A stretch of 40,506 nucleotides of DNA from an uncultured Candidatus Saccharibacteria bacterium (GCA_964459335.1 CAYWJX010000004.1:1-40506); one strand, 5' to 3'; shown: positions 1 through 20,023, counted from the first letter of the stretch. Notes: a model not told the origin generated them from the sequence alone. Numbers and translations are program-made.

Positions 1-1304
1 GCCATCATCTCTTTAACCGTGCGTTCCATGCGCATGCTTTGCGAGCCTTTAACTAACACGCAGTCGCCACTTTGGAGCAAAGCGGCAAGCTCCTCCCCTG
101 CTTTTGCGGAATCTTCATATTGCAAAATTGCATTTTCGGCAAGGCCGCCGTCGAGCGCGGCCTCGGCTATGTCACGCGCGCGAAAGCCAACCGTCACGAG
201 CATGTTGACAGCGCCGCCATCATTTGCGCGAGTTGCCACTTCGGCGCCAATTTTGCGATGCTCCTCTACCGATTGGCGGCCAAGCTCGAGCATGTCGCCC
301 AAGACTGCAATGCGGCGACCATTCGTGGGGATTGCCTTGAGCGCATCAAGTGCGGCAACAACCGCCGCCGGCGAAGAGTTGTATGTGTCGTCAATAATCA
401 GCGTATCTTTGACGCCGCGCACCAAGTGCATGCGCCCCTGCGGCGGCTCGTAGTTTTTAAGCGCATGTGCAATATCGCTCGGCGCTTTTCCAAGCGCAAC
501 ACCAACAGCCGCCGCTGCGAGCGCCGGCAAAAGTGTATGCATGCCAATGGCTCCCTCAACCTCGATAGGCACCGAGATGCCGTCTATGGTGAGGCGTGTA
601 CTCATCCCTATCGGCCAGTGTTCGATACCGCTCTCAAAAAGAATTTTGGTGTCTTCGGCACGGATATCGGCTCCCGGCGCAAAACCAAATGTAATTATTC
701 TTCCCCGACGCTCTGGTCGGGGCCCCGACCCAGAGGCGTCGGGGTTACCATTCGTAAAACGTAATTTAAACTCCTCCACCCGCTCATCGTCGGCATATAG
801 CACCAAGGTGCCCTCGGGGAGCAATGCGTCAATCAGCGCAGCTTTTTCCTCAACCACCGCCTCGGATGACTCAAAAAACTCCACATGCACCGGCACCTCG
901 GGGAGCCGGGTAATAACCGCAATATCAACCGGCAACCACGCGGTTACCTTTTTAATATCGCCCGGTCGGTCGGCTCCAACCTCAAGCACCAACCACTCGG
1001 GGTAGTGCGACCCAAACGCAATAAGCAAAAGCCCGTCAACTAAATTAAGTACCCATTTAAAAGGATTATTCCACGCATTGGGGCGCCCCAAGATAGTGAG
1101 TGGCAAGCCTATCTCGCTGTTAAAACTTTTTTGCGACTTGCGCACATGGGTGCCCTCGGCTACCACCTCATAGATGGCATCTTTGGTGGAAGTTTTACCC
1201 ACACTTCCGGTTATAGCAATAATGTGCGGCTTGTAACGCACCACCGCCAAGCGGGCCTCAAGTGACAGGAGCAACAGTATTGTTTTTTTAAAAGCGGTGC
1301 GCAT
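1..1304 (-). CDS. murF: UDP-N-acetylmuramoyl-tripeptide--D-Ala-D-Ala ligase (3' end runs off the window)
   Basis: Absent from the ORF track (no stop in window). Manual translation from ATG 1304 gives IAITGSVGKTSTKDAI, KSFNSEIGLP, LEVGADRPG, DDTYNSSP, VLGDMLELG, LVKGSQ (Mur ligase motifs). Follows ftsI. Confidence 0.93.
   Translation of the reverse strand, partial: MRTAFKKTILLLLSLEARLAVVRYKPHIIAITGSVGKTSTKDAIYEVVAEGTHVRKSQKSFNSEIGLPLTILGRPNAWNNPFKWVLNLVDGLLLIAFGSHYPEWLVLEVGADRPGDIKKVTAWLPVDIAVITRLPEVPVHVEFFESSEAVVEEKAALIDALLPEGTLVLYADDERVEEFKLRFTNGNPDASGSGPRPERRGRIITFGFAPGADIRAEDTKILFESGIEHWPIGMSTRLTIDGISVPIEVEGAIGMHTLLPALAAAAVGVALGKAPSDIAHALKNYEPPQGRMHLVRGVKDTLIIDDTYNSSPAAVVAALDALKAIPTNGRRIAVLGDMLELGRQSVEEHRKIGAEVATRANDGGAVNMLVTVGFRARDIAEAALDGGLAENAILQYEDSAKAGEELAALLQSGDCVLVKGSQSMRMERTVKEMM
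703..744. repeat. 42-bp double-hairpin palindromic element, copy 1 (inside murF)
   Basis: CCCCGAC-gctctg-GTCGGGG-CCCCGAC-ccagaggc-GTCGGGG, flanked by TT on both sides. Confidence 0.9.
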
Positions 1305-1309
1305 GAGGA

Positions 1310-3022
1310 TTATCGGTCGGGAGGAAGATTATAATAATTAATCAGAAAACGGGTAATGTCGATAAACGGATTGGACCATGTTTCAGAGGCATAAGGAGCG
1401 CCAACCGGCTTTAGCGCAAACAAAAAGATAATAAATCGCGCGTTGCTGTTGGCCGGTAGGTAGCCAAAGTAGCTGTGCAAATAGGTGTCCGGATAATACG
1501 CTCCGGTTGACGGATCAACTATTTGTGCGGTGCCTGTTTTGGCCGCAATACTGTAGTGAGCCATTTTGACAGCTCCGTTATCGAGCACGGTGTCGACCAC
1601 GGTGGTAAGCATGCCCGTAACCGTTGCAACTGTACTTGGCTTCAACACCGGGGTACCCGTGCCCCAATTGAGCGTCTTGGTAACACCCGTGTCATATTGT
1701 ATCGCACTTGCAAGATGAGGCATCACCAGCTTACCGCCGTTGGCGAGCGTCGCAAGACCCCGTATGGTTTCCATAGGTGTGATGGCAATGCCCTGCCCGA
1801 ATGCCGCCGTATCATAATCAACTTGGCGGTTGTGGTTTAAGTTGCTTACCAGCCCCGCCTGCTCCTCGGGCATATCGATACCGGTCGCCTCCCCTAAGTC
1901 GTAATGATTAAGAAAATAATCTTTCATAATTGCCGGCCCCATGCGCGTTGCAATAAACGAGGCGCCCACGTTGAGCGATTGGCTTAATATTTGCTGCATA
2001 GGTATCACGCCGCGCGCGGCATGGTCGTAATTGCAAATTGGTTTTGTATCAACGGTAATGCAACCCAAGTCGTCATACGTGGTGGTTGCCGTAATCACGC
2101 CGGAGTCGATGCCGGCCGCCATTGTGAGCGGTTTTATAATGGAACCCATCTCGTACACGTTTTGCACCAATGGGTTTGCAAAGATAAGCGGGTCGGTTTG
2201 CGCGCCAAAATTATTTAAATCAAAAGTGGGAGACACCGCCATCGCGTATATCGCGCCGGTTTGCGGATCCATGATGATACCGCCGGAGCTCGCCGGATGC
2301 CAGGTGTTATCGTAGGCAACGAGCTCGCGCTCGAGCTCGGCTTGCACCGACGGCTCGATGGTAGTGATGACGTCTCCGCTTTGCGGCGTTCCGTTTATCA
2401 CTCCCTGTGCGGTGCTAAAAAGCTGAACAAAAAAGTTGGCATACAAATCGTCGTCGGTTTTGTTGAGCGTGCCTTGATATTGCTTCTCAAGCCCATAGCG
2501 GCCTTCTTGCTCGTCGCCGTTGTATGCCACAAATCCTATCTCCTGCGCGGCAAGTGAGCCGCCCGGATAATAGCGCCAGCGGTCTTCGGCCAAAATAACG
2601 CCGGGCAATTGTTTTTGCTCGAGCTCAACTCCCAGCGCGGTGTCGAGATGGTCCGCAATGACACTGTACTCGGTGCTCGGCTTGGTCGCTTTGGCTAAAA
2701 AGTCGTTCTCGTCGAGTGGAATCAAACCGCTGAGAGATGTATAGAGCGCCTGTGCATCGGTAACTTTTGTCGGATTAACCGCAAGCGTAAAACCACTTTT
2801 AAGTGTTGCTGCAATGATGTGGTTGCCGTCTTTGTCGGTAAAATAAATTGAATCGCGGTCGGGCAAAGGACTCGCCGGCTCCATAAACTGTGCGTCGGCG
2901 CGGGCCATATATGCTTTGCCTTGCACAATTTGAAGGAAGTACAGCCGCCCCACAATGATAAGACCACCCAACACGATGCATGCCGTGAGGACACGCACTC
3001 GGCCGATAAAACGCGCATTCAT
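1310..3022 (-). CDS. ftsI: Penicillin-binding protein, FtsI/PBP3-like
   Basis: N-terminal TM, YEMGSIIK (SxxK), SLN (SxN), KTGTAQ; position in mraZ-rsmH-ftsL-ftsI-murF cluster. Confidence 0.9.
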   Translation of the reverse strand: MNARFIGRVRVLTACIVLGGLIIVGRLYFLQIVQGKAYMARADAQFMEPASPLPDRDSIYFTDKDGNHIIAATLKSGFTLAVNPTKVTDAQALYTSLSGLIPLDENDFLAKATKPSTEYSVIADHLDTALGVELEQKQLPGVILAEDRWRYYPGGSLAAQEIGFVAYNGDEQEGRYGLEKQYQGTLNKTDDDLYANFFVQLFSTAQGVINGTPQSGDVITTIEPSVQAELERELVAYDNTWHPASSGGIIMDPQTGAIYAMAVSPTFDLNNFGAQTDPLIFANPLVQNVYEMGSIIKPLTMAAGIDSGVITATTTYDDLGCITVDTKPICNYDHAARGVIPMQQILSQSLNVGASFIATRMGPAIMKDYFLNHYDLGEATGIDMPEEQAGLVSNLNHNRQVDYDTAAFGQGIAITPMETIRGLATLANGGKLVMPHLASAIQYDTGVTKTLNWGTGTPVLKPSTVATVTGMLTTVVDTVLDNGAVKMAHYSIAAKTGTAQIVDPSTGAYYPDTYLHSYFGYLPANSNARFIIFLFALKPVGAPYASETWSNPFIDITRFLINYYNLPPDR

Positions 3023-3038
3023 TATCCTATTCTAACCT

Positions 3039-3392
3039 CTATTTTATCTGCCCCAAGGAAAGTGAGCCACTCTCTCCGTGCGCATACACACTTGTCACGT
3101 TGGTAGGAGTGACCAATCCAAGCGCCGTGGCGCGCTCGGGCGTGAGCGACTGTGTCAGCGTTAAATACTGATTTTCGAGAGCGCTTAATTGCTCGGTAAG
3201 TTGCTCCGTACTGCGCTCGGCGGTCGTTTTGGCGGCGGCATTGGCAACCGCCTCAAGCAAAAACGCACAGTACAAAAAGACAGAAACGGTAAGTATTACT
3301 ACCAAAAATACGAGTGCGCGATTGAGATACGGCTGATATACGACCGCCGCTTGCTCGACCCCTCGTTGCATTTGGTTAGTTATCCTTTTCAT
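3039..3392 (-). CDS. FtsL-like single-TM coiled-coil cell division protein
   Basis: One TM then a leucine-rich coiled coil; lies between rsmH and ftsI. Confidence 0.65.
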   Translation of the reverse strand: MKRITNQMQRGVEQAAVVYQPYLNRALVFLVVILTVSVFLYCAFLLEAVANAAAKTTAERSTEQLTEQLSALENQYLTLTQSLTPERATALGLVTPTNVTSVYAHGESGSLSLGQIK

Positions 3393-4485
3393 ACGATTTT
3401 TCTATGACCCGGAGCTTTGCGCTCCGTGCCGAAGGATTTTGGATTATTTCTGCACGACTTGGGACTAAAGGTTTTCCCCGACGTTTCAGTCGGGGCCCCG
3501 ACCCAAAGGCGTCGGGGTTAACGAATGCTCCTTCACCTTTATCCACTAAATTTTGAAAAAGTTTTTTAACCGCGCGGTCCTCGATGCTGTGGAACGTAAT
3601 GACCGCTATGCGGCCGCCGAGTCTAAGGTGCTCCCACGCGGCACCTAACCCCTGCTCAATGCAGGTAATCTCGGCGTTGACCGCCATGCGCAAAGCTTGA
3701 AAGGAACGTGTGGCCGGATGCAAGCGCCCATGGCGGTAAGCGGCAGGCACTGCATCTTTGATTATTTCGGAAAGCTCAACGGTTGTTTCGATAGGCCGTA
3801 TCTCGCGGCGCTCCACTATTGCCTTTGCAATGCGGCGCGCATACGTCTCTTCTCCATAGCCGTAGAGCACATCGGCAATAACTTCCTCTTTCCACTCGTT
3901 TACTATCTCGGATGCAATAAAACCGGAGGCAGGCTTTGCGCCGTAGCTCATGTTGAGAGGCTCGTCGATTAAAAACGAAAACCCCTTGCTTGCCGCGAGC
4001 TGCTCGCGGTTCCAACCCAAATCAAATATAGCTTTATCAATCGTTTTGAGGCCTGCGTGTTTGAGCACTTTTCCTAAATCTTTAAAATTGGCCTCTACGA
4101 CCTCGGCGCGTGCGCCGTATGATACAAGACGCTTGCGCGTGCGCTCCACCGCCGCAAGGTCGGCATCAAGTGCCAGGAGGCGCGCGCCGGCTTTGAGGAC
4201 TGCCTCGCTATGGCCACCGCTGCCTGCCGTGGCATCAACCACCAGCTCGCCTTTTTGTATGTCTAATTGCTCAAGTACTTCCTTGAGCATGACGCTCACA
4301 TGTCTGCCCGCAGGAGTTTTAGAGGCTCCGGACACCGGCACTTGCTGCTGCCTGCCCCGACCTTCACGTCGGGGCTCGCGCAAAGTATCGTTCTCCTCTC
4401 GAGAGGAACGATAGAAGGTACGAACCCCGACGCTCCCTTCGGGAGGTACGGGGCAGGCAGTAGCTAATGTCGGTGTACTTTTCAT
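3376..4485 (-). CDS. rsmH: 16S rRNA m4C1402 methyltransferase RsmH, with ~60-aa N-terminal extension and a 14-aa internal insertion
   Basis: DATAGSGGH, FDLG, HPATRSFQALRMAVN, ITFHSIEDR, NPSARSAKLR; ATG lies 1 nt after the mraZ stop. Confidence 0.95.
   Translation of the reverse strand: MKSTPTLATACPVPPEGSVGVRTFYRSSREENDTLREPRREGRGRQQQVPVSGASKTPAGRHVSVMLKEVLEQLDIQKGELVVDATAGSGGHSEAVLKAGARLLALDADLAAVERTRKRLVSYGARAEVVEANFKDLGKVLKHAGLKTIDKAIFDLGWNREQLAASKGFSFLIDEPLNMSYGAKPASGFIASEIVNEWKEEVIADVLYGYGEETYARRIAKAIVERREIRPIETTVELSEIIKDAVPAAYRHGRLHPATRSFQALRMAVNAEITCIEQGLGAAWEHLRLGGRIAVITFHSIEDRAVKKLFQNLVDKGEGAFVNPDAFGSGPRLKRRGKPLVPSRAEIIQNPSARSAKLRVIEKSYEKDN
3476..3517. repeat. 42-bp double-hairpin palindromic element, copy 2 (inside rsmH)
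   Basis: CCCCGAC-gtttca-GTCGGGG-CCCCGAC-ccaaaggc-GTCGGGG, TT flanks. Confidence 0.9.
4344..4464. repeat. Composite inverted-repeat element forming most of the rsmH 5' extension
   Basis: CTGCCTGCCCCG (4348-4359) and CGGGGCAGGCAG (4449-4460) are a perfect 12-bp inverted repeat enclosing three internal hairpins. Confidence 0.75.
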
Positions 4486-4486
4486 A

Positions 4487-4921
4487 TTACAAAATGCCTA
4501 AGTCGCCCAGCGTCTGTGCCATTTGGTCGGCGCCTTTTTCAATCCGGCGCTTATACTCTTCCCAAGTCTTTTCGTTCCAGATTTCGATGCGGTCCGAGAC
4601 TCCTGCCAAGACTACGCGCGAGCGCAAGTCGGCAAACTCTTTTAAAAAGTCGGGCACCAAGATGCGCCCTGCCGCATCAACATCGGTCTCGACCGCGCCT
4701 GCCAAAATAAAACGGCTCATGCCGCGCGTGTCCGCTCCGCCCATGGGAAGATTGTGCAGTTTAGCTACAATTTCCTTCCATGCTGCAAGTGGAAACATAA
4801 ACAAGCATGAATCGAGACCGCGCGTGATGACAACCTTGCGCCCCACCTCTTTGCGAAACTTTGCCGGAAGTGAGAGGCGTTTTTTGCTATCGAGTGTGTG
4901 GAGATATTCACCAATCAGCAT
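4487..4921 (-). CDS. mraZ: Transcriptional regulator MraZ
   Basis: MLIGEYLHTLDSKKRLSLPAKFR, VITRGLDSCL, DAAGRILVP, GVSDRIEIW; start taken at ATG 4921. Confidence 0.95.
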   Translation of the reverse strand: MLIGEYLHTLDSKKRLSLPAKFRKEVGRKVVITRGLDSCLFMFPLAAWKEIVAKLHNLPMGGADTRGMSRFILAGAVETDVDAAGRILVPDFLKEFADLRSRVVLAGVSDRIEIWNEKTWEEYKRRIEKGADQMAQTLGDLGIL

Positions 4922-4925
4922 ACTT

Positions 4926-4991
4926 ACCACTCTATCCCACTTGGCTACCACTGCATAGCACTTTGCCCCACAAAACTGTGGATTACCCCAC
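4926..4991 (-). promoter_or_regulatory. MraZ-binding direct repeats (GTG-G/C-G/T pentamers at 10-11 bp period)
   Basis: On minus strand GTGGT, GTGGG, GTGGT, GTGCT, GTGGG begin at 4930, 4940, 4951, 4961, 4971, with another GTGGG at 4991; matches the established GTGGG-type MraZ autoregulatory repeats. Confidence 0.75.
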
Positions 4992-5024
4992 TTTGCAGTT
5001 GTTTATAGTTGCCTGTATAGCCGC

Positions 5025-5053
5025 TTGACAAAAGTATAGTTATAGATTAATAT
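5025..5053 (+). promoter_or_regulatory. sigma70-type promoter
   Basis: TTGACA-N17-TAATAT. Confidence 0.55.
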
Positions 5054-5114
5054 ATTAAGTGGGAAGAGTCGGACAGGCACGAGGAAATGGAGCCCCTAGC
5101 AAAAGAGGCTTATC

Positions 5115-5297
5115 ATGTGGCTGTTCCAAAAAAACAAAGGGATTCAGGCTTACACCGGCGTATTGGCCGAAACGCCTTTATTCCCCAAACGAGATATTGC
5201 CAAAGAGGCGCGGGATATCGCGCTGGCGTTTATCGCTCTCGCCGCTTTTCTATATCTTCTAATCCAACATTTCGGGCCAGCAGCTTGCCCGACGTGA
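5115..5297 (+). CDS. Small hypothetical membrane protein (60 aa)
   Basis: AGAGG upstream of ATG, one hydrophobic segment, lies between a promoter and a hairpin. Confidence 0.45.
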   Translation: MWLFQKNKGIQAYTGVLAETPLFPKRDIAKEARDIALAFIALAAFLYLLIQHFGPAACPT

Positions 5298-5306
5298 CGC
5301 AATCAA

Positions 5307-5334
5307 GGCCGGCGACCCATCTGGGACGCCGGCC
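5307..5334. terminator. GC-rich hairpin between convergent genes
   Basis: GGCCGGCG-ACCCATCTGGGA-CGCCGGCC. Confidence 0.55.
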
Positions 5335-5355
5335 ATTATTCTTTTTATATAAACT

Positions 5356-6933: not shown

Positions 6934-6942
6934 GCACCTATT

Positions 6943-9471: not shown

Positions 9472-10196
9472 GGATTAGTTTGTACCTCTATATAGTGCAA
9501 CGAAAATAAGTTAACGGGAAGCTGTACATACAATGTGATAAAAGAGGAGCCCACTTCCTGACTTACATGAGACACCGACCCCACAAACGTCGAGCCGATG
9601 CCGGGCAAAACAATGGAGTCGCCTACCTTAACCGGCGTGTCGGCAGGAACCTCACCCGACATCGAGCCGGCACCTTGACCTGCAAGCGAAACGGGTACAC
9701 TGCCGTTGAGGAGCGCGTCGTATGTTTCGCCGGGGCTCGAGAGGAGTGTTACGCGCGAGGTGGTATCGTACACCTCGCTCACCGTGCCAACGACCGAGGT
9801 CCCTCCTGCAAACACTAAATCGCCCGGCGTTATATTATCTTGTTTGCCGATGTCTATAATAAGTGTGTCGTACGGTATGCCAGGCGGTTTTTGGAGCACT
9901 GCGCCAAGGACGCTGTGGTTGCTGGCACTGCGACCGAGCAGTTGTTTAAGCTCGGTATTTTCTGCATACAACGCGTTGCGGTCGGCAAGCGCCGCCGTGG
10001 TGGATGCAAGTTCGGCGCGCAAGACGGTATCCGTGTTTACACCAAGTGAATTACGAAATGTTATTACCGGAGAGACGGCGTTCCAAAAAAAATTACTTAT
10101 ACTACTGCGTAGGAGCACCGCAAGTACGATAACGCACGCGGTAAAAAAAAGAATTAACCAAAAACGGTTCCGATGTTTAGAAGATGTCGTCGTCAT
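9468..10196 (-). CDS. mreC: Rod shape-determining protein MreC
   Basis: TM, coiled coil ENTELKQLL, YDTLIIDIG..D..GD.V, VGTVSEV; follows mreB. Confidence 0.88.
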   Translation of the reverse strand: MTTTSSKHRNRFWLILFFTACVIVLAVLLRSSISNFFWNAVSPVITFRNSLGVNTDTVLRAELASTTAALADRNALYAENTELKQLLGRSASNHSVLGAVLQKPPGIPYDTLIIDIGKQDNITPGDLVFAGGTSVVGTVSEVYDTTSRVTLLSSPGETYDALLNGSVPVSLAGQGAGSMSGEVPADTPVKVGDSIVLPGIGSTFVGSVSHVSQEVGSSFITLYVQLPVNLFSLHYIEVQTNP

Positions 10197-11232
10197 GTTC
10201 GAGGAATACGTCGCGATGCGCTTCCAAATTTTCCAAAATGACCCCCGTGCCGCGCGCCACAGCGGTGAGCGGATCGTCGGCTACTATGACCGGCACCTTG
10301 AGCCATTGCGCGAGCAGGCTGTCGAGCCCTTTGAGCAGAGCACCGCCACCCACGAGCACTAACCCCGCGTGCATGATGTCGGATAAAATTTCGGGCGGCG
10401 TTGTCTCGAGCACCTCGCGCACCGACTCAACGAGCGTGTCTATCGATTGTGAGATAGCCTCGCGGATGTCCGAGTCGGTAATGATAATCTCGCGCGGCAA
10501 CCCGGTAATGAGATCGCGACCGCGCACGATGGCCTCCATGTGCTCGCCGCCTTCGATGGCGGTGCCTATTGCCATTTTTACGTTTTCGGCAGTCTTCTCG
10601 CCTATTAAAATTTTAAACTCGGAGCGCACGTACGAAATGATGTCTTGGTTGAGTTTGTCGCCGGCCACGCGCAAATTTTTGGAGCGGACGATGCCGCCCA
10701 AACTAATAACCGCAATATCAACCGTCCCGCCGCCGATGTCGACAATCATGCTCCCCATCGCCTCGCGCACGGGCAAGCGTATGCCAAGCGCCGCCGCCAT
10801 AGGCTCCTCTACTATATGTACCTCGCGCGCGCCCGCGTTTTGCGCCGCATCTTTAACGGCGCGTATCTCCACGTTGGTAATGCCGGAGGGTACGCCGATG
10901 ACCGCGCGCGGGCCCAGCATCCGACGCGATACGCCTTGTGCGCGATTAATTAAATACGCGAGCATCTCCTCGGTTGCCTCAAAGTCGGACACAACGCCGT
11001 CGATAAGCGGGCGTACGGCGACAAGATGCCCCGGTGTGCGACCGAGCATCGCCTTTGCTTCGGTGCCCACTGCTACCACCTGGCCGGTTTTTTGATTGAC
11101 CGCCACGACCGACGGCTCGGTCACCACAATGCCCTTGCCGCGCAAATACACCAGCGTGTTAGCCGTACCAAGGTCAATGCCTACATCGTTGGATATAAGC
11201 GGCAAAAATCGGTTTTGAAAATTTTTAAACAT
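10177..11232 (-). CDS. mreB: Rod shape-determining protein MreB (operon copy)
   Basis: IDLGTANT, EEPMAAA, VDIGGGT, GGGALL, VARGTG. Confidence 0.96.
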   Translation of the reverse strand: MFKNFQNRFLPLISNDVGIDLGTANTLVYLRGKGIVVTEPSVVAVNQKTGQVVAVGTEAKAMLGRTPGHLVAVRPLIDGVVSDFEATEEMLAYLINRAQGVSRRMLGPRAVIGVPSGITNVEIRAVKDAAQNAGAREVHIVEEPMAAALGIRLPVREAMGSMIVDIGGGTVDIAVISLGGIVRSKNLRVAGDKLNQDIISYVRSEFKILIGEKTAENVKMAIGTAIEGGEHMEAIVRGRDLITGLPREIIITDSDIREAISQSIDTLVESVREVLETTPPEILSDIMHAGLVLVGGGALLKGLDSLLAQWLKVPVIVADDPLTAVARGTGVILENLEAHRDVFLEHDDDIF

Positions 11233-11253
11233 CGAAATATGCGGAGGGTTCAG

Positions 11254-12655: not shown

Positions 12656-13582
12656 ATGTTGAATGCAACTGGCGAACAGACTTCTGTCGTGCGTAATCAG
12701 TGGGGAGTTTCCAGAGAGAAAATGGTCATCGACTGGAAACACCCGCTCGGTACGATTCGAACCGATGTACGTCGATTCACAATCGGTGGGATCATCCAGA
12801 AAAGCCCGAGCACGTGGGCACCGATTATTTTGGGGCAAGACAAGCCAGACAGCATAGAGCTTGATTTTGCCCACGAAGTACGGGGTGACGTTTTCGTTCT
12901 GTGCATTCGAGAAAATGCAATTATTGAAGACGTCACACGAGGCGGAATCCCTTCAGTCGAAATGCCCATCGAATGGGACAACGGCATACCCCATACGCCT
13001 CAAAAAGAGAAGGGTCATTTTGATCTCATCCTTCTCAAAACGGACGGCACATTCATCCAAATCGAACCATCTGTCGCCACGCGCAACGGAAGGTTCTGGG
13101 TGTGCAAACAAGCAATCTTTGGCGGAGTGTTCGTCAAAGACGCTATGGGGCACATCATCGTAGTACCTTCGAATGCAGAAAACAACTACCCCGGCGTCGA
13201 TTACCTGAACTCGAAAATGTGCAGAGACGCGGCACCCGAACTTCTGAAGTTTGCAGCAGAGCATTGCAAACTTGCCGATATTCACACGGTCAAGGTCCCC
13301 CGTTGGGAACCGAACTGGAGCAAACCTCTTTCCGACCAAATGAAAAAGAACGGTTGGGTTAGGGCGGCCGTCCTTTTCTTCAATGTGGTGAACGGCTGGG
13401 GAATCGTACTCTGCGAAGACGGAAGGTCTTGCTTCGTCCACTTTAAGGACATTATGGACGAGTATGGCAAACCGATCTTCTCTCAAGGCGAGTTCCCTAT
13501 CTTGCAGCCGATGAGCGGCGTTGCCATCAAATACAAAGAAGAAGGCAATAAACGCAAAGCGACTGCAGTGCGCATCGTCTAA
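12656..13582 (+). CDS. Hypothetical protein with a C-terminal cold-shock (OB-fold) domain
   Basis: GGGAG upstream of ATG 12656; C-terminus FFNVVNGWGIV...CFVHFKDI...ATAVRIV resembles CSD RNP1/RNP2. Confidence 0.75.
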   Translation: MLNATGEQTSVVRNQWGVSREKMVIDWKHPLGTIRTDVRRFTIGGIIQKSPSTWAPIILGQDKPDSIELDFAHEVRGDVFVLCIRENAIIEDVTRGGIPSVEMPIEWDNGIPHTPQKEKGHFDLILLKTDGTFIQIEPSVATRNGRFWVCKQAIFGGVFVKDAMGHIIVVPSNAENNYPGVDYLNSKMCRDAAPELLKFAAEHCKLADIHTVKVPRWEPNWSKPLSDQMKKNGWVRAAVLFFNVVNGWGIVLCEDGRSCFVHFKDIMDEYGKPIFSQGEFPILQPMSGVAIKYKEEGNKRKATAVRIV

Positions 13583-13605
13583 CCGTCACTGACGGAACAA
13601 AAAAC

Positions 13606-13643
13606 AACGAGCAGAGAGGTTATCGTCCTCCTGCTCGTTTTTA
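13606..13643. terminator. Intrinsic terminator, probably bidirectional
   Basis: AACGAGCAG...CTGCTCGTT stem with T-run after and A-run before. Confidence 0.7.
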
Positions 13644-13658
13644 TTTTCATATATAAAG

Positions 13659-14768
13659 TTACCCTATGAGGCGCACAATGTCGTGGTAGGACACGACCAC
13701 CATAAGTAGGATGAGGAGCGCAAAGCCGACCATCGTGGCCTTCATCACAAGGCTCGGGCGTATCGGGCGGCGGATTATTGCCTCGATGATAATGATAAGC
13801 AAGCGGCCACCGTCGAGGCCGGGGATTGGTATGAGGTTGATGATTGCGAGGTTAATTGAGATGAGCGCGGTTAAGAGCGCCGCCGCAACCCAGCCTTGCT
13901 TGAGTGTTGCTGCACCAAATACCGTGATACCGATAGGGCCCGCCACCTGGCTAAAGTCGGCGGTGCCGGTTATCAGTTGCTTAAAAAATGTAGCAAGACC
14001 CTGTGCCGTGTTGATGGTAATGTCGTAGCCAAGTACCGCGCCTTGGAGCAGAGCCTGCGGGGGTGCGAGCCTTAGTGTGCCCACATCGGAAAGTTCAACA
14101 CCTATTGCTTTGTGCCCGGGAATTATGCCATCCTCAGCTTTAGCCAAAAATGATTTTTGTACGCCATCGCGCGACACGGTGACAATGACGCTCTCGTTTT
14201 GATGCGCCAAAATAAAGTTGGTGACGGTGTCAGCGGCGCCGGAGTTCTCTGTTTGGACAAGCGAGCGCACATCGAGCGCGGCTGTGGCGGTTTGGACCTC
14301 CTCTATTTGGTCGCTTGCGAGGAGGCCGGACTTTTCGGCCGGAGAGTTGGGTAATACATCGGTTATAAGTACCTGCACGTTGGTAACGGTGCCAAAGGTT
14401 TGAGTACCGGGCGAGGTTGGGATGCCCGCCAGGTAGCCTGCCGAGAGTACGAGCCATGCAAAGAGGAGATTAAACACGATGCCCGCGACAATCACGGCCG
14501 CTTGCACATAGCGCGGCTTGTTTACAAAACTGCGGGGCTCCATTTGCCCCTCGTTGTAGTTTTCGCCAAAGATTTTTACAAACCCGCCAAACGGCAGCCA
14601 GTTGATAGAGTACTCGGTCTCCCCTTTTTTAAAGCTCGCGATGCGCGGCGGAAAAAAGATGCCAAACTCGTCGACGCGTATGCCGCACAATTTTGCAACG
14701 ATAAAGTGCCCAAACTCGTGCACAATAACGAGCACCACCAAAATGAGAATAAAGTAGACGAGGGTCAT
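13659..14768 (-). CDS. rseP: Site-2 (RIP) metalloprotease RseP, family M50 with PDZ domain
   Basis: HEFGH, NLIPIPGLDGG, PDZ-like VLPNSPAEKSGL, VAGPIGI. Confidence 0.93.
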   Translation of the reverse strand: MTLVYFILILVVLVIVHEFGHFIVAKLCGIRVDEFGIFFPPRIASFKKGETEYSINWLPFGGFVKIFGENYNEGQMEPRSFVNKPRYVQAAVIVAGIVFNLLFAWLVLSAGYLAGIPTSPGTQTFGTVTNVQVLITDVLPNSPAEKSGLLASDQIEEVQTATAALDVRSLVQTENSGAADTVTNFILAHQNESVIVTVSRDGVQKSFLAKAEDGIIPGHKAIGVELSDVGTLRLAPPQALLQGAVLGYDITINTAQGLATFFKQLITGTADFSQVAGPIGITVFGAATLKQGWVAAALLTALISINLAIINLIPIPGLDGGRLLIIIIEAIIRRPIRPSLVMKATMVGFALLILLMVVVSYHDIVRLIG

Positions 14769-14784
14769 GTGCCTTATGATAGCA

Positions 14785-15336
14785 CTAGCCCGCTATCTCC
14801 TTCTCCTTCCGCGCGAGTGCGGTGTCAAAGGCGGCATTGGCCGCGTCAACGCGCTTTTGCATGTCTTCTTTTGCTTTAAACTTGTCATCTTCGGGCATAT
14901 GCCCCTCGCGCTCCAGTTTTTGGATGTCGCTCCACACCTCGTCGCGCGCGGAGCGCAATGCTGTGCGCAGTTCTTCAACTTTTTCTTTTGCAATTTTGAG
15001 GAGCGACATGCGGCGCTCCGATGTGAGCTCGGGGAAAAATACGCGGATGCCCTTTTCGTCCATGCCGACCGAGAGGCCGAGGTTTGCGGTTGTTATTGCC
15101 TTTTCAATTTCTTTGGCTAGGGCTTTATCCCACGGCACAATGCGCAAGGTGCGCGCGTCTTCAATCGATATATTGGCCACCTGCGTTATCGGCACACGCG
15201 TGCCATAACTCTCTACCAACACACCGTCGAGTATCGCCGGCCCCGCGCGCCCGGTGCGTACAGATGCCAACTCTTTAGTAAGCCGCTCGGTAATCTCCGC
15301 AATCCGCTTATCAAAAACTTTAAAATCGTATGCCAT
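14785..15336 (-). CDS. frr: Ribosome recycling factor
   Basis: VRTGRAGPAILD, IRVFFPELTSERR, RSARD; start at MAYDF (15336). Confidence 0.95.
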   Translation of the reverse strand: MAYDFKVFDKRIAEITERLTKELASVRTGRAGPAILDGVLVESYGTRVPITQVANISIEDARTLRIVPWDKALAKEIEKAITTANLGLSVGMDEKGIRVFFPELTSERRMSLLKIAKEKVEELRTALRSARDEVWSDIQKLEREGHMPEDDKFKAKEDMQKRVDAANAAFDTALARKEKEIAG

Positions 15337-15349
15337 ATATAATAGTATA

Positions 15350-16027
15350 TCAAACTCTAAATATGTTGGCCGCAGGCGGGTAGATTTTGACCAACGGGTC
15401 TTTATCGGTGTCATATATACGCGCGGGAGCCATCCGCCTGCCATACCAGATAACGCGGTGGGTAAACGCGCGCCACTCTTTGTGAGGCAGGAGTTGCATC
15501 AAATCTTTTTCGATTTTTTCGGGTGTTTTTTCGCTTGAGAGGTCAAAACGTTTTACAAACCGTACGACGTGCGTGTCCACAGTAACACCTGCAAGTATGC
15601 CAAACGCCTCGGCAAGCACGACATTGGCGGTTTTGCGCGCAACACCCGGTAAACGCAACAATTCTTCCATTGTTTTAGGAACTCGGCCCGCAGCCTCTTC
15701 TTTTATTATCCTTGCCGAGGCAAGGATGTTTTTTGCTTTGTTGCGATAAAACCCCGACGCAAAAATATCTTTTTCAAACTCGCGCTTCCCACGCGCGCTT
15801 GCACCTGCGCGCACATAAGCGTCGAGCGTTTTGTATTTTTTAAACAACTTTTCGGTAATTTTGTTGACCTGCTTGTCGGTCGATTGCGCGGAGAGTTGTA
15901 CAGCCACCAAAAGCTCCCACGGCGTTTTGTAATTGAGCTCAATTGCCGCATTGGGATACAACTTGGTAAGCGCACAGCTTAGCTTTTGCACGCGCAACTT
16001 TCTTTCTTGTAGTTTTTTAGGAGTCAT
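15350..16027 (-). CDS. nth: Endonuclease III, lacking the Fe-S cluster cysteines
   Basis: LLVAVQLSAQSTD, LPGVARKTANVV (HhH, catalytic Lys), VDTHV (catalytic Asp). Confidence 0.9.
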   Translation of the reverse strand: MTPKKLQERKLRVQKLSCALTKLYPNAAIELNYKTPWELLVAVQLSAQSTDKQVNKITEKLFKKYKTLDAYVRAGASARGKREFEKDIFASGFYRNKAKNILASARIIKEEAAGRVPKTMEELLRLPGVARKTANVVLAEAFGILAGVTVDTHVVRFVKRFDLSSEKTPEKIEKDLMQLLPHKEWRAFTHRVIWYGRRMAPARIYDTDKDPLVKIYPPAANIFRV

Positions 16028-16054
16028 AAGGACACTATGATATATCATAGTGAG

Positions 16055-16744
16055 TTATATCTTTGGCAGTACCAAGGCTAAATGCTCGAGCAACATTTTA
16101 AACGACGGCGAGCGGTCGCCTGCGTAGGAGCGCACCTTTGCAATATCCTCGAGCGCTTCGCGAAACTCTTTTTTGCCTTGTGATTGCAAGAGTTTTGTGT
16201 GGAGCTCGGTTTCGAGCCCGTTTACAAAAGCCCGCACGCGCTCTCGGGCGCCTTCGTCGTCTTTGAGCAACTCGGTAATAGCCGCACTCCGTGTTTTGTA
16301 TGGAGATTTTAGGAAAGTTAAAATTTGCTGAGCAAAAATGTCTGGTTGAGACGAAGATTTGGGAGCTAAACTCCCAAGGGAGTTTAGCTCCCTTACGTAT
16401 GGGTATGCGAGCATGCGCGAACGTAGTGTTGGCAACAGCACTCCATGTGGTAGCACGAGTACGAGCGTTAGTCCTGCCCGCGGCTCTTCAAGCAATTTGA
16501 GCAACGCTTGTTGCGCCTCAGTAGTAATTGACGAAATCGCGATAATAAAAAAGCTCTTTTCTCCCGCCGATTTAAACGATGCAAGAGTCCTTAGCTCCGC
16601 CGCTTCCTCAACACCAAATTTTTCGTATGCTCGCTCTAAAAAATCGGGGTCGTTCGGTTTGATATGCTCGCGTGCACGCACGTCATCACTCACCTCCCGT
16701 AAGAGATGCGTTTCGCCTTCTAAAAAATAAGCATGGTGAGTCAT
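16055..16744 (-). CDS. holB: DNA polymerase III delta-prime-like subunit
   Basis: HAYFLEG, AQQALLKLLEEP, LLPTLRSR; Walker A degenerate. Confidence 0.72.
   Translation of the reverse strand: MTHHAYFLEGETHLLREVSDDVRAREHIKPNDPDFLERAYEKFGVEEAAELRTLASFKSAGEKSFFIIAISSITTEAQQALLKLLEEPRAGLTLVLVLPHGVLLPTLRSRMLAYPYVRELNSLGSLAPKSSSQPDIFAQQILTFLKSPYKTRSAAITELLKDDEGARERVRAFVNGLETELHTKLLQSQGKKEFREALEDIAKVRSYAGDRSPSFKMLLEHLALVLPKI
16361..16392. repeat. 32-bp palindromic element inside holB
   Basis: GGGAGCTAAACTCCC-AA-GGGAGTTTAGCTCCC: perfect 15-bp inverted repeat, each half itself a hairpin. Confidence 0.8.
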
Positions 16745-16758
16745 TGGGTAAATTATAA

Positions 16759-16832
16759 GCTCCAAAAAAGATTTGTATTTTGTGAGCGCTGCGAGCTGCC
16801 AAGGGGAGCAAAATATAAATCTTTTTAGGAGC
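16759..16832 (+). repeat. Long intergenic hairpin, copy A
   Basis: 25-bp stem (2 G-T pairs, 1 mismatch) around the 24-nt loop GAGCGCTGCGAGCTGCCAAGGGGA. Confidence 0.85.
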
Positions 16833-17845
16833 TACCTTTTAGTAATGATGGCTTTTTTGTACGTATCGAGATGGTTGAGCGCAATACCCGTGCCGCGCGC
16901 CACGCAATAAAGCGGGTCCTCGGCCACGGTGGCTTTGACACCCGTGCGGCGGAGCACGAGCTCGGGAAAGTTGCGTAACAACGAGGTGCCCCCTGTCATG
17001 ATGATACCTCTATCAATAATGTCGGATGCCAGCTCGGGCGGCGTTTCTTGCAACACATCGCGTATCGCTTTGATTATCTCACGGAGCTCTTTGCCGATGG
17101 CTTTAACAATGTCGTTGGTTTTAATCTCAACCGTGCGCGGGAGCCCCGAGATAAAATCGCGGCCGCGCACCATCACCACAAGCTCCTCCTCCATCGGCAC
17201 CGCCGAGCCGATGGCGATTTTGACATCCTCGGCGGTCTTCTCACCGATCCCGAGGTTGTATGTTTTTTTAATATAATCGGCAATCGCGTGGTCGAGTTTG
17301 TCGCCCGCGCATTTAACGCTCGTGGAAGCAACGATGCCGCCGAGGCTAATCACCGCCACGTCGCAGGTTCCGCCGCCGAGGTCCACCACCATGTTGCCGC
17401 GTGCCTCTTGTATCGGAATGCCTGCGCCGATGGCCGCAAGCACCGACTCTTTAACCACGTACGCGCTTTTTGCACCCGCGCGTATCGCGGCCTCAACCAC
17501 TGCTCTACGCTCGGTTGAGGTAACGCCGGTGGGCACGCTAATCATCACCTCCGGTTTAAAAAACTGGAAGCGGCCGAGCGCCTTTTGGATAAAATAACGC
17601 AACATTGCTTGCGTCACGCGATAGTCCGCAATCACGCCGTCGCGGAGCGGCCGGTACGCGACAATCTCGCCCGGCGTGCGGCCTATCATCTCTTTGGCGG
17701 CAAAACCCACCGCCAAAATGCGCTTGTCTACTTCGGATATTGCCACCACCGAAGGCTCGTTGAGGATGACGCCCTTGCCGGGCACAAACACCAGCGTGTT
17801 GGCGGTGCCGAGGTCAATGCCGAGTTTTGGAGTAAAAAAGGCCAT
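16832..17845 (-). CDS. mreB: MreB/Mbl-family actin-like ATPase, second paralog
   Basis: GIDLGTANT, VDLGGGT, GGTSLLR, VARGTG; stand-alone copy. Confidence 0.93.
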   Translation of the reverse strand: MAFFTPKLGIDLGTANTLVFVPGKGVILNEPSVVAISEVDKRILAVGFAAKEMIGRTPGEIVAYRPLRDGVIADYRVTQAMLRYFIQKALGRFQFFKPEVMISVPTGVTSTERRAVVEAAIRAGAKSAYVVKESVLAAIGAGIPIQEARGNMVVDLGGGTCDVAVISLGGIVASTSVKCAGDKLDHAIADYIKKTYNLGIGEKTAEDVKIAIGSAVPMEEELVVMVRGRDFISGLPRTVEIKTNDIVKAIGKELREIIKAIRDVLQETPPELASDIIDRGIIMTGGTSLLRNFPELVLRRTGVKATVAEDPLYCVARGTGIALNHLDTYKKAIITKR

Positions 17846-17892
17846 AAATCACAGCAATGATACTGGATATGACGCAACATAACAAATCTTGC

Positions 17893-17921
17893 TTGACAAA
17901 GCTACTATATACCAGTACAAT
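17893..17921 (+). promoter_or_regulatory. sigma70-type promoter
   Basis: TTGACA-N17-TACAAT. Confidence 0.65.
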
Positions 17922-18064
17922 GATAACTAGATTCGCAGAACAAAGAGAGGCTCATCACGAGCCTCCAAACACAACAATAGAATCATGACGATAAAGCCGG
18001 AAGGTGAAATAAGGCACCATCCAATCGCAGTCTATCCAAAGCCAACAGTAGCAAGGAGACAATC

Positions 18065-18385
18065 ATGCGCGTAGTACCTGAGGGAGGACTTCATTCCCCA
18101 CTGTGGCGTTCGAAACTTGATGCGTCGGAGGGACAAAAAAACCGTATTGCACGGGAAGCCCTCAATCTTCTTAAAGTAATCGAAAATGAGCTGAACCCTG
18201 AGGGATTCACGCTTGAAGAGATGAGGGAAGAAGGCTTCGGCCTCGAGATTGACGAGAAGCGCTTCAACCTTCTCTTTGGTTTCCTCAAGGACATGGGATA
18301 TGTGGAGGCAATCGATGAAGACGGGAGCCAATATCGGTTGAACCAGGAGAAGCTGGCTCCTCCAATTCCGTCGTACCCGGTGTAA
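18065..18385 (+). CDS. Hypothetical protein (106 aa), possibly winged-helix-like
   Basis: AAGGAG RBS, own promoter and terminator; LKDMGYVE...YRL pattern. Confidence 0.65.
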   Translation: MRVVPEGGLHSPLWRSKLDASEGQKNRIAREALNLLKVIENELNPEGFTLEEMREEGFGLEIDEKRFNLLFGFLKDMGYVEAIDEDGSQYRLNQEKLAPPIPSYPV

Positions 18386-18411
18386 ACCGGCATTTGATTC
18401 GAAACAGACTT

Positions 18412-18443
18412 AAAGCCGCGGTCCAAAAGACCGCGACTTTTTC
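18412..18443. terminator. Intrinsic terminator
   Basis: AAAG-C-CGCGGTC caaaa GACCGCG-A-CTTT followed by T-run. Confidence 0.7.
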
Positions 18444-18453
18444 TTTTTGAACA

Positions 18454-19710
18454 TTATGCAGCCACCTCTCTTTTTATATTAAGGCCGAGCTTTTGGAGAC
18501 GTTCCTCTATATGCTCGTAGCCGCGGTCTATGACATAGGCGTTGCTGATGGTTGAGGTGCCTGTCGCAACCGCCGCGGCAATGATATATGCCAAGCCGCC
18601 GCGCAGGTCGGGGCTCTCAAGCTCTTTGCGGCTGAGTATTCTTGGCCCTTTAATTAAAATTTTATGCGGATTCATCACCGTGATGTCGGCGCCCATGCGC
18701 ACGAGGTCGTCGGCATATCTAAAGCGTCCGTCAAAAATCGTTTCGAGTATCGTGCCCTCGCCGGTTGCTTGCGAGAGCAGGACGGCCATCGGCGCTTGGA
18801 GATCGGTGGGGAATCCCGGATACTCGTGCGTGCGCACCGATACAAGCTTAAACGCATTATTTTGTATGCTACCTGCCGATACCTTTATATAGTCGTGGCC
18901 AACCTCAAGCGGTACGCCCGCGCGCTTGAGCAAGGTGATGAGTGCGCCCATGTGTTTTGGTTCACACTGTTTTATCGTGACCTCTTTGCCCGCAAGTGCA
19001 GCGAGTATCACAAAACTCCCCGCCTCAATCCTGTCGGGCGGCGTCACAAACGCTCTGCCTCCTGCTTTGAGCAATCCACCACCGGTAATGGTTATCGTGC
19101 TTCCGCCTGCGCCCTCGATGTGCGCGCCGCAGGAGTTTAAAAACTCTGCCAAGTGCGGTATCTCCGGCTCCATCGCGGCGTTTTCGAGTGTCGTTACACC
19201 TTCAGCGAGCACGGCTGCAAGCATAAGTGTCTCGGTTGCCGTTACCGATACAAATGGGAAGGTGATGTGCGCACCTTTCAATTTTTTATTGGGCGCAGTG
19301 ACTACAAACAAATCATCTTTTTCTTCAACGTTTGCGCCCATCGCTTTAAATCCTTCCAAAAACAAGTCAATAGGCCGCTCGCCGAGCACACATCCGCCGG
19401 GGAACGGGAAGGTTACGGTGCCGAGCCGCGCGAGCAAAGGGCCGGTCATCACAATCGAGGAGCGCATGCGCTCGGATATTTTTTTATCCATCACCGGGTT
19501 GAGCGTATTGCCTTGCTTAGCAATAGCCAAAAGTTCACGCATGCGTGCGACATCCTCTATCTCGGGCATATGTTCGTACTGCAACTCGTCTTCAAACAAA
19601 ATAGACGCGGCGAGCGCTTTGGTGGCCGCGTTTTTAGCACCGCCCACCACAATCTCGCCTTCCAATGTTTTTTTGCCCGCGAGCCCTTCGACGATAAATT
19701 TACTTTGCAT
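18454..19710 (-). CDS. murA: UDP-N-acetylglucosamine 1-carboxyvinyltransferase
   Basis: GAKNA, MRSS, PGGCVLGERPIDL (catalytic Cys), SVTATE, PGFPTDLQ, DLRGG, IDRGYE; start at MQSKF. Confidence 0.96.
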   Translation of the reverse strand: MQSKFIVEGLAGKKTLEGEIVVGGAKNAATKALAASILFEDELQYEHMPEIEDVARMRELLAIAKQGNTLNPVMDKKISERMRSSIVMTGPLLARLGTVTFPFPGGCVLGERPIDLFLEGFKAMGANVEEKDDLFVVTAPNKKLKGAHITFPFVSVTATETLMLAAVLAEGVTTLENAAMEPEIPHLAEFLNSCGAHIEGAGGSTITITGGGLLKAGGRAFVTPPDRIEAGSFVILAALAGKEVTIKQCEPKHMGALITLLKRAGVPLEVGHDYIKVSAGSIQNNAFKLVSVRTHEYPGFPTDLQAPMAVLLSQATGEGTILETIFDGRFRYADDLVRMGADITVMNPHKILIKGPRILSRKELESPDLRGGLAYIIAAAVATGTSTISNAYVIDRGYEHIEERLQKLGLNIKREVAA

Positions 19711-20023
19711 GGTTGTCAGGATGATTTTTAGGATTGATTTCCCACCAAAACTTTTTGGAAAAGTCCTTTGCATTGTCGCATACACTCTTGAGGTAGTACA
19801 AATCCTTGGTGGGTATGGCGAGGAGCAAGCGACCCATGCGCGGCATCGTAAGTTTGCCTAAACCATCGCGCACGCGCGCGGTATTGAGCCGCTCCATAAA
19901 GTATTGCATCAGCTCGCCGCGCTCGGTAACACGGCTTTTCCCCGACGCCTTGGTCGGGGCCCCGACCTCAGAGCGTCGGGGTTGAAGTCCTTTTTTTGAA
20001 ATGTGCGCGCTGATGTGGTCCAT
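19700..20023 (-). CDS. Hypothetical protein (107 aa)
   Basis: Packed between the DsbA-like gene and murA with near-zero gaps; helical, TERGEL...LYYL.S.C.....FSK.FWW. Confidence 0.7.
   Translation of the reverse strand: MDHISAHISKKGLQPRRSEVGAPTKASGKSRVTERGELMQYFMERLNTARVRDGLGKLTMPRMGRLLLAIPTKDLYYLKSVCDNAKDFSKKFWWEINPKNHPDNHAK
19940..19981. repeat. 42-bp double-hairpin palindromic element, copy 3
   Basis: CCCCGAC-gccttg-GTCGGGG-CCCCGAC-ctcagagc-GTCGGGG, TT flanks. Confidence 0.9.

Follow-up and report, generated by a model that had tools for sequence, protein, structure and literature searches.

A palindromic double-hairpin element inserted in frame into protein genes of Patescibacteria

Genes and element copies in the window

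The stretch of DNA analysed here (the window) comprises 40,506 nucleotides of an assembly labelled uncultured Candidatus Saccharibacteria bacterium (GCA_964459335.1, CAYWJX010000004.1:1-40506), and carries a short GC-rich palindromic element inside three protein genes of the minus strand: murF (1..1304, an open reading frame (ORF) that extends past the left end of the window), rsmH (3376..4485) and a conserved hypothetical gene for a 107-amino-acid (aa) protein (19700..20023). A fourth copy lies on the plus strand just upstream of an intact tRNA-Asn(GUU) gene (24791..24863). Homologous loci from other genomes and metagenomes are given below by L numbers.

The hairpin pattern CCCCGAC-N4-10-GTCGGGG has seven matches in the window, compared with none in 100 dinucleotide-preserving shuffles. 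Six of the seven form three back-to-back pairs of 42 nt each at 703..744, 3476..3517 and 19940..19981, with plus-strand loops of 6 and 8 nt. The complete pattern at these positions, CCCCGAC-N6-GTCGGGG-CCCCGAC-N8-GTCGGGG, was likewise found in 0 of 100 shuffles, which rejects chance and confirms the three exact in-frame copies reported in a first-pass annotation of this DNA.

A covariance model (R1) built on 46 members of the element family recognises exactly four full copies in the window. Copy 1 (703..744, minus strand, 62 bits) lies in murF and reads CCCCGAC GCCTCTGG GTCGGGG CCCCGAC CAGAGC GTCGGGG on the coding strand, encoding (N)PDASGSGPRPERR(G). Copy 2 (3476..3517, minus strand, 42 nt) lies in rsmH and encodes (N)PDAFGSGPRLKRR(G), and copy 3 (19940..19981, minus strand, 42 nt) is read in the other of the two frames used in the window, encoding PRRSEVGAPTKASG in the N-terminal linker of the 107-aa protein. 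The coding-strand junctions of these three copies are TAA/AAG, TAA/AAA and CAA/AAA, the slash marking the insertion point. Copy 4 (24728..24766, plus strand, 39 nt, 51 bits) has variant arms, GGCCGAC GCAAG GTCGGCC TCCCGAC CGAAGC GTCGGGA, each altered on both sides such that pairing is kept. In a scan of the window against Rfam, the tRNA-Asn alone reached the gathering threshold, and the element matched no curated covariance model.

The basic unit is a single hairpin of about 20 nt, with a 7-bp stem (NNCCGAC/GTCGGNN) and a loop of 4-12 nt, because lone units occur in the rsmH leader described below; the loop symmetry agrees with this. The usual form is a zero-spacer inverted dimer of 38-48 nt, 42 nt being the commonest length. 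The whole element is a pseudo-palindrome in which the second half is roughly the reverse complement of the first, and since loop 1 begins with G and loop 2 finishes with C it has 8-nt terminal inverted repeats (CCCCGACG/CGTCGGGG). Predicted folding of the copies is strong (-30 to -38 kcal/mol), and the minimum free energy (MFE) fold of copies 1 and 3 is one long hairpin across the dimer. The double hairpin described in the first-pass annotation is therefore real, but it is a dimer of a smaller unit. This dimeric nature had been missed, as had copy 4 with its variant arms, the single hairpins at 4355..4374 and 4425..4453 and the arm variation across the family.

Across 608 kb of DNA fetched from the related loci there are 81 exact dimers, about 11 variant dimers and additional single units, and almost all adjacent perfect double hairpins in this DNA belong to the element family.

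Filled and empty sites in host genes

RsmH (PF01795), whose gene starts 2 nt past the mraZ stop codon, reads ...AFV-NPDAFGSGPRLKRRG-KPLVPS at the element. The 14 extra residues are present in two of the best 120 homologues (55-100% identity), those of the window and of a 91%-identical congener, and the remaining 118 have V-K/K-P with no insert. The element has therefore split a Lys codon within AAA/AAA, with a gain of exactly 42 nt (14 codons) and no duplication, so that a target-site duplication is rejected at this site. The congener (L006/L078), which is 82-88% identical to the window at the nucleotide level, has the same RsmH copy in L006 with two substitutions, both in loops.

MurF was identified by matches to MurF structures in the PDB and by Mur ligase Pfam domains (P0241), and reads ...FTNG-NPDASGSGPRPERRG-RIITFG. 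Here just two proteins carry the element, that of the window and that of a relative with 90% identity (P0242, L206), the site being empty in relatives at 78-88% identity, including the congener (neither L006 nor L207 has the element). The L206 copy lies at the same site (87% nucleotide identity) in the opposite orientation, with coding-strand loops GCTTCG/CCAGGGGC against GCCTCTGG/CAGAGC in the window.

The 107-aa protein belongs to a conserved Parcubacteria family of 662 homologues with no Pfam domain and reads ...GLQ-PRRSEVGAPTKASG-KSRV. Nearly all of the best 120 of the 662 homologues are empty at this position, and the same linker is filled in the congener and in a 63%-identical protein (L080), with a possibly diverged copy in L205. 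The congener copy (L078) differs from that of the window in hairpin 2, where a C-G pair has been exchanged for T-A and pairing is kept. Orthologues of the three proteins are thus mostly empty (for MurF in the relatives at 78-88% identity), as expected of the in-frame insertion proposed in the first-pass annotation.

Comparison among loci by tblastx gave further empty and filled pairs (L042/L067, L021/L053, the def gene of the window against L046 and L013, and L040/L071 against L013). Other copies are common to orthologous sites, namely those of L049/L055 and those upstream of hpf in L040/L051/L071. The element is gained and lost between close relatives, and either orientation is possible at one site.

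Probable read-through of copies inside genes

About 48 of the 81 exact copies lie within long ORFs. Core length is a multiple of three in 37 of the 48 ORF-internal copies and in 10 of the 33 copies outside ORFs (Fisher p = 3.5e-5), the latter fitting the expectation of 1/3. Cores of 41 or 44 nt in BipA, GrpE, fructose-bisphosphate aldolase and another ORF also leave the frame unchanged, because the true addition is the core plus one base. The copies inside ORFs are those that keep the frame.

All three frames are used by ORF-internal copies (14:25:8), giving products of the types PRRxxVGAPTxxSG, xPTxxxVGAPT... and NPDAxGSGPRxxRRG, and the arms are free of stop codons in all six frames. The bias towards multiples of three, together with these open frames, argues for read-through and translation of the element and against its removal from RNA, predicting 13-16 extra residues rich in Gly, Pro, Ser and Arg. 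The use of all frames, the compensated arm changes and the orthologous C-G to T-A exchange support the earlier suggestion that the constraint is on the nucleic acid and not on the peptide. The longer loop comes first in about 27 of 40 ORF copies, a weak orientation bias relative to transcription.

Among the host genes are holB, KsgA, RNase HII, DinB, LigA, SecA, IleRS, MnmA, P-type ATPases and an M13 peptidase, and Def and MurF are each hosts twice, at different sites. Mapping onto predicted structures, as the first-pass annotation had proposed, places the RsmH insert of the AlphaFold model in a low-confidence coil between two strands (predicted local distance difference test, pLDDT, 61-69) and the 107-aa insert in a disordered N-terminal tail. 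Pfam borders place the LigA and MnmA inserts between domains, in LigA between the OB domain and the following region. Loops and linkers are thus the probable positions of these inserts. With respect to the starts and ends of genes, the copies have no constant placement.

Insertion signature and hairpin conservation

The trinucleotide YAR (Y = C or T, R = A or G) abuts the 5' side of the element on one or both strands in 69 of 81 copies (85%), compared with 23% expected (p = 1e-31). Within ORFs the trinucleotides found are CAA, CAG and TAA. Outside coding DNA TAG or TAA predominates, with xTAG at tRNA and intergenic copies, and the trinucleotide is often the stop codon of the upstream gene, 0-1 nt away (L038, L044, L047, L011, L018, L076). 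In RsmH the AA is part of the target, so that YAR is target-derived there; this is less clean at MurF. The element is accordingly added without target duplication directly 3' of YAR, exactly so at RsmH and less cleanly at MurF. Loop order relative to YAR is mixed (8,6 in nine copies and 6,8 in six), which fits the flipped MurF copy of L206.

The arms are exact in the three ORF copies of the window, as first described, but are not invariant across the family, in which the outer two base pairs vary, mostly on both sides at once. Among the 46 family members, collected with a regular expression that left these two base pairs free, 16 double-sided changes contrast with one unpaired cell and one G-U pair, a result that no shuffle equals. 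Hairpin complementarity is therefore maintained. Template switching at quasi-palindromes can produce compensated changes mechanically, and the arm data fit such correction and selection equally.

Distribution among genomes

The exact double-hairpin pattern was found at 77 loci among 185,579 species genomes, and with two exceptions the labels name Patescibacteria lineages (Nomura-, Kaiser-, Lipton-, Adler-, Yanofsky-, Moran- and Jorgensenbacteria, Paceibacterota, Minisyncoccia and 'Saccharibacteria'). One exception is a 2.5-kb 'Planctomycetales' contig that is 69% aa-identical to a Parcubacteria locus, and the other consists of contigs of a metagenome-assembled genome (MAG) labelled merely 'bacterium'. 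The element is restricted to Patescibacteria, mainly Parcubacteria/Minisyncoccia. Both the assignment to the candidate phyla radiation (CPR) and the analogy with Rickettsia palindromic elements (RPEs) made in the first pass hold. Minisyncoccus archaeiphilus is a cultivated organism of the same class (PMC12281837), and groundwater and peat metagenomes, among them the SPRUCE and Hainich sets, contain these lineages.

Host loci range from 33 to 60% G+C with identical arms. Variant arms of the types TCCC, GGCC, AGCC, CTCC and ACCC also occur, and the exact search undercounts because of them (L080 has three copies in 8 kb). No match to the exact pattern was found in the 2.9 million viral contigs of IMG/VR, and a phage vector is rejected on this basis.

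Labels of the form 'MAG TPA_asm: uncultured Candidatus Saccharibacteria' look unreliable for L046, L044 and others. Identity of L046 to the window is 85% around tRNA-Asn and 68-71% in coding DNA, and L044 matches the 'Nomurabacteria' locus L038 at 98% protein identity.

Association with tRNA genes

Copy 4 lies in a leader (24716..24790, plus strand) directly upstream of the intact tRNA-Asn(GUU), which begins 24 nt past the element. The copy lies between nucleotides 10 and 11 of a tRNA-Asn 5' fragment, the order in the leader being a copy of tRNA nucleotides 1-10 (ATTCCGCGATAG), the element, nucleotides 11-16 (CTCAAT) and a 3' acceptor strand that is degenerate (TATTGCAGAGTG). Pairing of the two flanks encloses the element, and the leader has an MFE of -36.6 kcal/mol (z -4.8). 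The copy is common to the more distant L046 and absent in the congener (L078), where tRNA-Asn and hpf have as neighbours an N6/N4 DNA methyltransferase, a ResIII/DEAD helicase and a large serine recombinase (L078/L079 1-5700); with this island a restriction-modification element has probably integrated and taken the place of the leader. A role of tRNA-leader copies as masters of the ORF copies found no support, as the leader copy of the window differs from its three ORF copies in arms and loops.

A metagenome scan for TAG, element and CTCA in succession, permitting variant arms, gave at least 119 loci. Among the matches listed, an intact tRNA (Thr, Phe, Ile, Lys, Val, Asn and others) lies within 130 nt downstream at 67 of 116 distinct sites, and the 11 nt upstream of the element recur at the start of the downstream tRNA in 46 of 129. 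Promoter-like TATAAT boxes lie directly upstream of tRNA-leader copies. Four loci (L097, L131, L180, L191) have an intact tRNA and, after it, a duplicate of that tRNA with the element between nucleotides 10 and 11; in L180 and L191 the part 3' of the element matches the intact copy at 100% identity and the 10 nt upstream have diverged.

Deleting the element reconstitutes a full tRNA at six metagenome loci among the matches listed. The same deletion at the 77 genome loci reconstituted no tRNA, the flanks there being tRNA 5' fragments and not whole genes. One metagenome locus (L182 2553-2600) has a tRNA-Met(CAT) with a 48-nt element between nucleotides 10 and 11, a good acceptor stem and an encoded CCA, and within 11 kb there is no second copy. 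Either this is a pseudogene and a working copy lies elsewhere, or the tRNA requires removal of the element.

The points of insertion in tRNA sequences are xTAG/CTCA of the D arm (nucleotides 10/11) or directly after CTCAG or CTCAA in the D loop. The first is favoured, with the element in a 5' fragment or a second copy beside an intact tRNA, and D-arm DNA would therefore be a preferred target. Insertion into a single-copy tRNA gene would be lethal, so that only insertions into a duplicated copy would survive, and the interrupted duplicate may then decay into the 'leader mimic' seen in the window. The leader, a minihelix plus hairpin, may also have a function of its own, or the duplication may be produced by the insertion mechanism itself.

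Other inserts occur at tRNA copies of this kind. Group I introns (RF00028; 77 and 60 bits) are present at L066 3790-4044 and L036 4923-5160 (minus strand), where a tRNA-Asn-like gene with an element-bearing leader is interrupted after ...CTCCCTGT in the anticodon loop. Similar broken tRNA-Asn-like loci lie at about 4900-4960 of L046 and about 4010-4060 of L072, and the tRNA-Asn of the window has no intron. A second palindromic insert of about 42 nt (CCTGCCCGCC...GGCAGGCGGG) lies in the D-stem region of element-bearing tRNA copies at about 1540-1590 of L108 and about 3100-3160 of L023 (minus strand); its ends resemble the CTGCCTG/CAGGCAG borders of the rsmH composite.

The rsmH 5' leader hairpin

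The 5' end of rsmH carries a palindromic structure of 113 nt (4348..4460, minus strand), in frame in the annotated ORF, with an MFE of -81 kcal/mol (z -8.7). It is a long hairpin conserved in the lineage and situated about 15 nt into the ORF, with apex CTCGAG, borders CTGCCTG/CAGGCAG and two mirrored insertions of the single hairpin unit. One of these (H2, 4355..4374, minus strand, 21 bits) lies in the 3' arm and reads CCCCGAC GTGAAG GTCGGGG; the other (H1, 4425..4453, minus strand), at the mirror position in the 5' arm, reads CCCCGtAC CTCCCGAAGGGAGC GTCGGGG. The composite also fits an inverted-pair arrangement of units with a 49-nt spacer.

Comparison with five other Parcubacteria indicates that pairing in the leader hairpin is kept despite sequence change. 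The window, L006 and L081 have one unit per arm, and L083 and L084 have an additional hairpin in just one arm. The composite is 100% identical to that of L006 over about 150 nt, in flanks that differ by 6-15% between the congeners. Rfam gave only sub-threshold chance matches and nothing credible at 4250-4550. This leader may act as a cis-regulatory RNA, or it may descend from a palindrome domesticated long ago.

Annotated rsmH ORFs of Parcubacteria start 2-36 nt past the mraZ stop codon, mostly 2-5 nt, and have a leader hairpin of 70-130 nt with apex CTCTCGAGAGGAG (L006 3560-3680; L081-L085 about 600-760). Translated on paper, this hairpin becomes a 'conserved' N-terminal extension, xLTSARAxHRLSREEGGxxREQ, which is unstructured in AlphaFold.

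Comparison with known repeat families

The closest known elements are the RPEs and the GTAG and CGTC superfamilies of repetitive extragenic palindromic (REP) sequences, and the element belongs to no described sequence family. RPEs, reportedly described in Rickettsia by Ogata et al. in 2000 and including the short RPE-4 and RPE-6, resemble it in being palindromic, in lying in frame in housekeeping genes and near or inside RNA genes, in being translated as extra surface segments, in being present or absent between related species and in having no transposase of their own. The in-frame insertion with insert-free orthologues by which RPEs are recognised is found here in RsmH, the 107-aa protein and MurF. 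Classic RPE-1 elements are 100-150 bp long. The element, in contrast to RPEs, is a zero-spacer dimer of 38-48 nt with 7-bp-stem hairpins, lacks a CGTC-type terminus with A-T-rich stem feet and lies in another host phylum; it is unrelated in sequence and outside all Rickettsia RPE families, its exact pattern being found essentially only in Patescibacteria among the 185,579 species genomes. To our knowledge, an association with tRNA 5' fragments has not been described for RPEs. RPE hosts, like those of the element, have reduced and gene-dense genomes (PMC3733652).

According to Di Nocera et al. 2013 (PMC3733652), REPs form inverted dimers whose spacers are 1-2 bp long or structured, occur within genes of Opitutus terrae and Rickettsia conorii, and can provide stop codons through their TAG termini, and CGTC-type families lack a dedicated transposase. 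The element shares with REPs and their hairpin-forming doublets (REPINs) a short, repeated, GC-rich hairpin unit of about 20 nt, inverted dimers that fold as one long hairpin, abutment on stop codons, some intragenic copies and possibly an xTAG-like 5' tag (here YAR, TAG in non-coding DNA) (PMC3733652; see also PMC3116915). It differs from them in being more than half intragenic rather than predominantly extragenic, in its low copy number, in having the same arms over very divergent lineages, and in that YAR belongs to the target (at RsmH; less cleanly at MurF) and not to the element. A REP-associated tyrosine transposase (RAYT) or REPtron was also not found, in a weak tblastn search of the 608 kb.

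Elements of the IS200/IS605 family likewise have hairpins at both ends and leave the target unduplicated when they insert 3' of a specific short sequence. Precise excision of IS608 and ISDra2 leaves seamless sites, and the empty RsmH sites look so. The hairpins of the element, however, are terminal rather than subterminal and leave guide sequences no room, the element, with its nearly two-fold symmetry, is found either way round relative to YAR (a test that this symmetry weakens), and no TnpA was identified. Compared with a DDE-type MITE (a miniature transposable element with inverted repeats), the element has terminal inverted repeats of 8 nt but no target duplication at RsmH. Mitochondrial double-hairpin elements, reportedly described by Paquin et al. 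in 2000, resemble it, together with mitochondrial GC clusters and hairpin-forming elements, in being very short GC-rich hairpins that have spread through compact genomes, at times into coding sequence or near tRNA genes; they are organellar and unrelated in sequence. On such mitochondrial hairpin elements see PMC4478555 and PMC2800124.

A literature search returned no paper linking REP, RAYT or MITE elements with Patescibacteria and none containing the 14-nt palindrome GTCGGGGCCCCGAC. The element is distinct by four traits, namely its mostly intragenic position, its zero-spacer dimer form, its restriction to Patescibacteria and its tRNA 5' fragments, and it is an RPE-like element in a bacterial group for which none had been described.

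Origin of the element and alternative explanations

The element is best explained as mobile, non-autonomous DNA akin to REPs/REPINs and RPEs, with a probability of about 0.6. Its mobility would depend on a trans-acting enzyme that recognises the foot of the hairpin on single-stranded DNA and cuts after YAR, for which the best-fitting known chemistry would be that of a Y1/HUH transposase of the IS200/IS605-RAYT type. Hairpin complementarity may be kept by the needs of this enzyme, by template switching at the quasi-palindrome, or by both.

Several observations weigh against such a mobile element. The clean 42-bp insert described at first is found at RsmH, but the MurF indel is 45 nt long and a further 17 nt on its 5' side differ between filled and empty alleles. 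Within-population polymorphism was not seen in the single possible test; a metagenome search for the exact empty MurF allele with window-type flanks had no match, which is uninformative rather than negative. No mobilising gene was found among the scanned ORFs of the window (about half) or in the 608 kb, though a trans-acting gene need not adjoin the element, and the search of these flanks by tblastn with IS608 TnpA and E. coli RAYT, which returned nothing below E = 1, was a weak one. Species genomes have at most three exact copies, a count that misses copies with variant arms; known REPIN families have tens to hundreds. For the identical arm core across very divergent Parcubacteria, horizontal spread or a conserved host factor is a better fit than a RAYT co-diverging vertically. 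Guide sequences of the IS608 type need space, and the hairpins here are flush with the ends of the element. Decay would be expected of a dead selfish insert, and intact copies have nevertheless persisted at orthologous sites of genomes that are 70% aa-identical (L049/L055; L040/L051/L071), an observation biased by the exact-arm search, which selects intact copies.

The hairpins could instead be host-selected modules, bound or cut as RNA or single-stranded DNA by a conserved Parcubacteria protein and acting in mRNA or tRNA-precursor processing, stability or translation pausing, with spread being secondary. This possible, if unlikely, explanation agrees with the compensated arm changes, the strong predicted folding, the TATAAT-like boxes just upstream of tRNA-leader copies, the rsmH composite that is unchanged within diverged flanks, and the retention of copies upstream of hpf, in the tRNA-Asn leader of the window and L046 and in L049/L055. 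Compensation can, however, arise mechanically by template switching and intact copies are enriched by the exact-arm search, and a host module does not account for presence that differs between congeners in essential genes and at unrelated positions, for the lack of a constant position relative to gene starts or ends, or for a site that accepts either orientation. A decidedly unlikely origin, with no dedicated enzyme, is the repair of breaks in A-rich or hairpin-prone DNA by gene conversion or local templating from other copies; it could produce the MurF allele, the 41- and 44-nt cores with one additional base and the partial duplications around the element at tRNA loci, and it needs no transposase, in agreement with the tblastn result. 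It would not be expected to give a specific YAR junction at 85% of copies, a precise 42-nt gain at RsmH or identical arms in genomes of 33-60% G+C, and the restriction to one lineage suggests a specific recognition system.

Removal of the element from RNA, or its bypass in translation, would leave proteins and tRNAs without it, as do archaeal bulge-helix-bulge introns and mitochondrial bypass elements. This is very improbable, although the position between tRNA nucleotides 10 and 11, the six loci at which deletion restores a full tRNA and the lone tRNA-Met of L182 with its good acceptor stem all favour it. For the ORF copies it is rejected on the enrichment for multiples of three and the lack of any in-frame stop, both of which would be needless if the element were removed. 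Four of the six tRNA cases have an intact copy of the same tRNA directly upstream, in most of them the 5' acceptor strand of the interrupted copy has lost its pairing, and the intact tRNA just downstream at 67 of the 116 sites listed also argues against it; RNA-level removal is weakly possible for the one tRNA-Met locus. An assembly or sequencing artefact, for which nothing speaks except the GC-rich palindromic character of the element, is next to impossible, and is refuted by the many independent studies and assemblers involved, by consistent in-frame placement within long ORFs and by orthologous copies with substitutions common to congeners.

A departure from the REP/REPIN model that is quite unlikely is that the hairpin is the recognition module of a Parcubacteria-wide enzyme whose substrate resembles a tRNA D arm (xTAG followed by a hairpin), which would make this a new mobile or processing system and not a REP variant. 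Such a system would write loops into essential proteins and remodel tRNA loci, giving rise to tRNA-like leader RNAs close to the promoter. These leaders, each an acceptor-stem minihelix with a double hairpin, could be small RNAs released by RNase P, and perhaps the active or guide form of the element.

Other features of the window

Two further hairpins of the window resemble the unit. That at 29476..29503 (CCCCCGA TTTAAAC GTCGGGGG) is a related single hairpin scoring 16 bits with R1, followed by a T-rich run that gives it a terminator-like look, and that at 35102..35122 (ACCCGAC CTTACCA GTCGGGC) is a single hairpin of marginal relation. The window also encodes two MreB paralogues (10177..11232 and 16832..17845), MreC, two transpeptidases of the penicillin-binding protein type, an mraZ-rsmH-ftsL-ftsI-murF cluster and a class I LysRS (PF01921).

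Implications

The link with tRNA fragments and the YAR-hairpin junction provide a handle for finding the mobilising enzyme of such orphan palindromes. The element is a lineage-specific marker and a source of strain-level variation, and it carries a warning for annotation, since extra segments rich in Gly, Pro and Arg, like N-terminal 'extensions' of CPR proteins, can represent hairpins that are translated. Invasion by a minimal palindromic element still goes on in Patescibacteria, whose genomes are ultra-small and gene-dense, and essential enzymes such as MurF, RsmH, LigA, SecA and IleRS tolerate the insertion of 13-16 new residues, making the element a natural and recurrent loop-insertion experiment.

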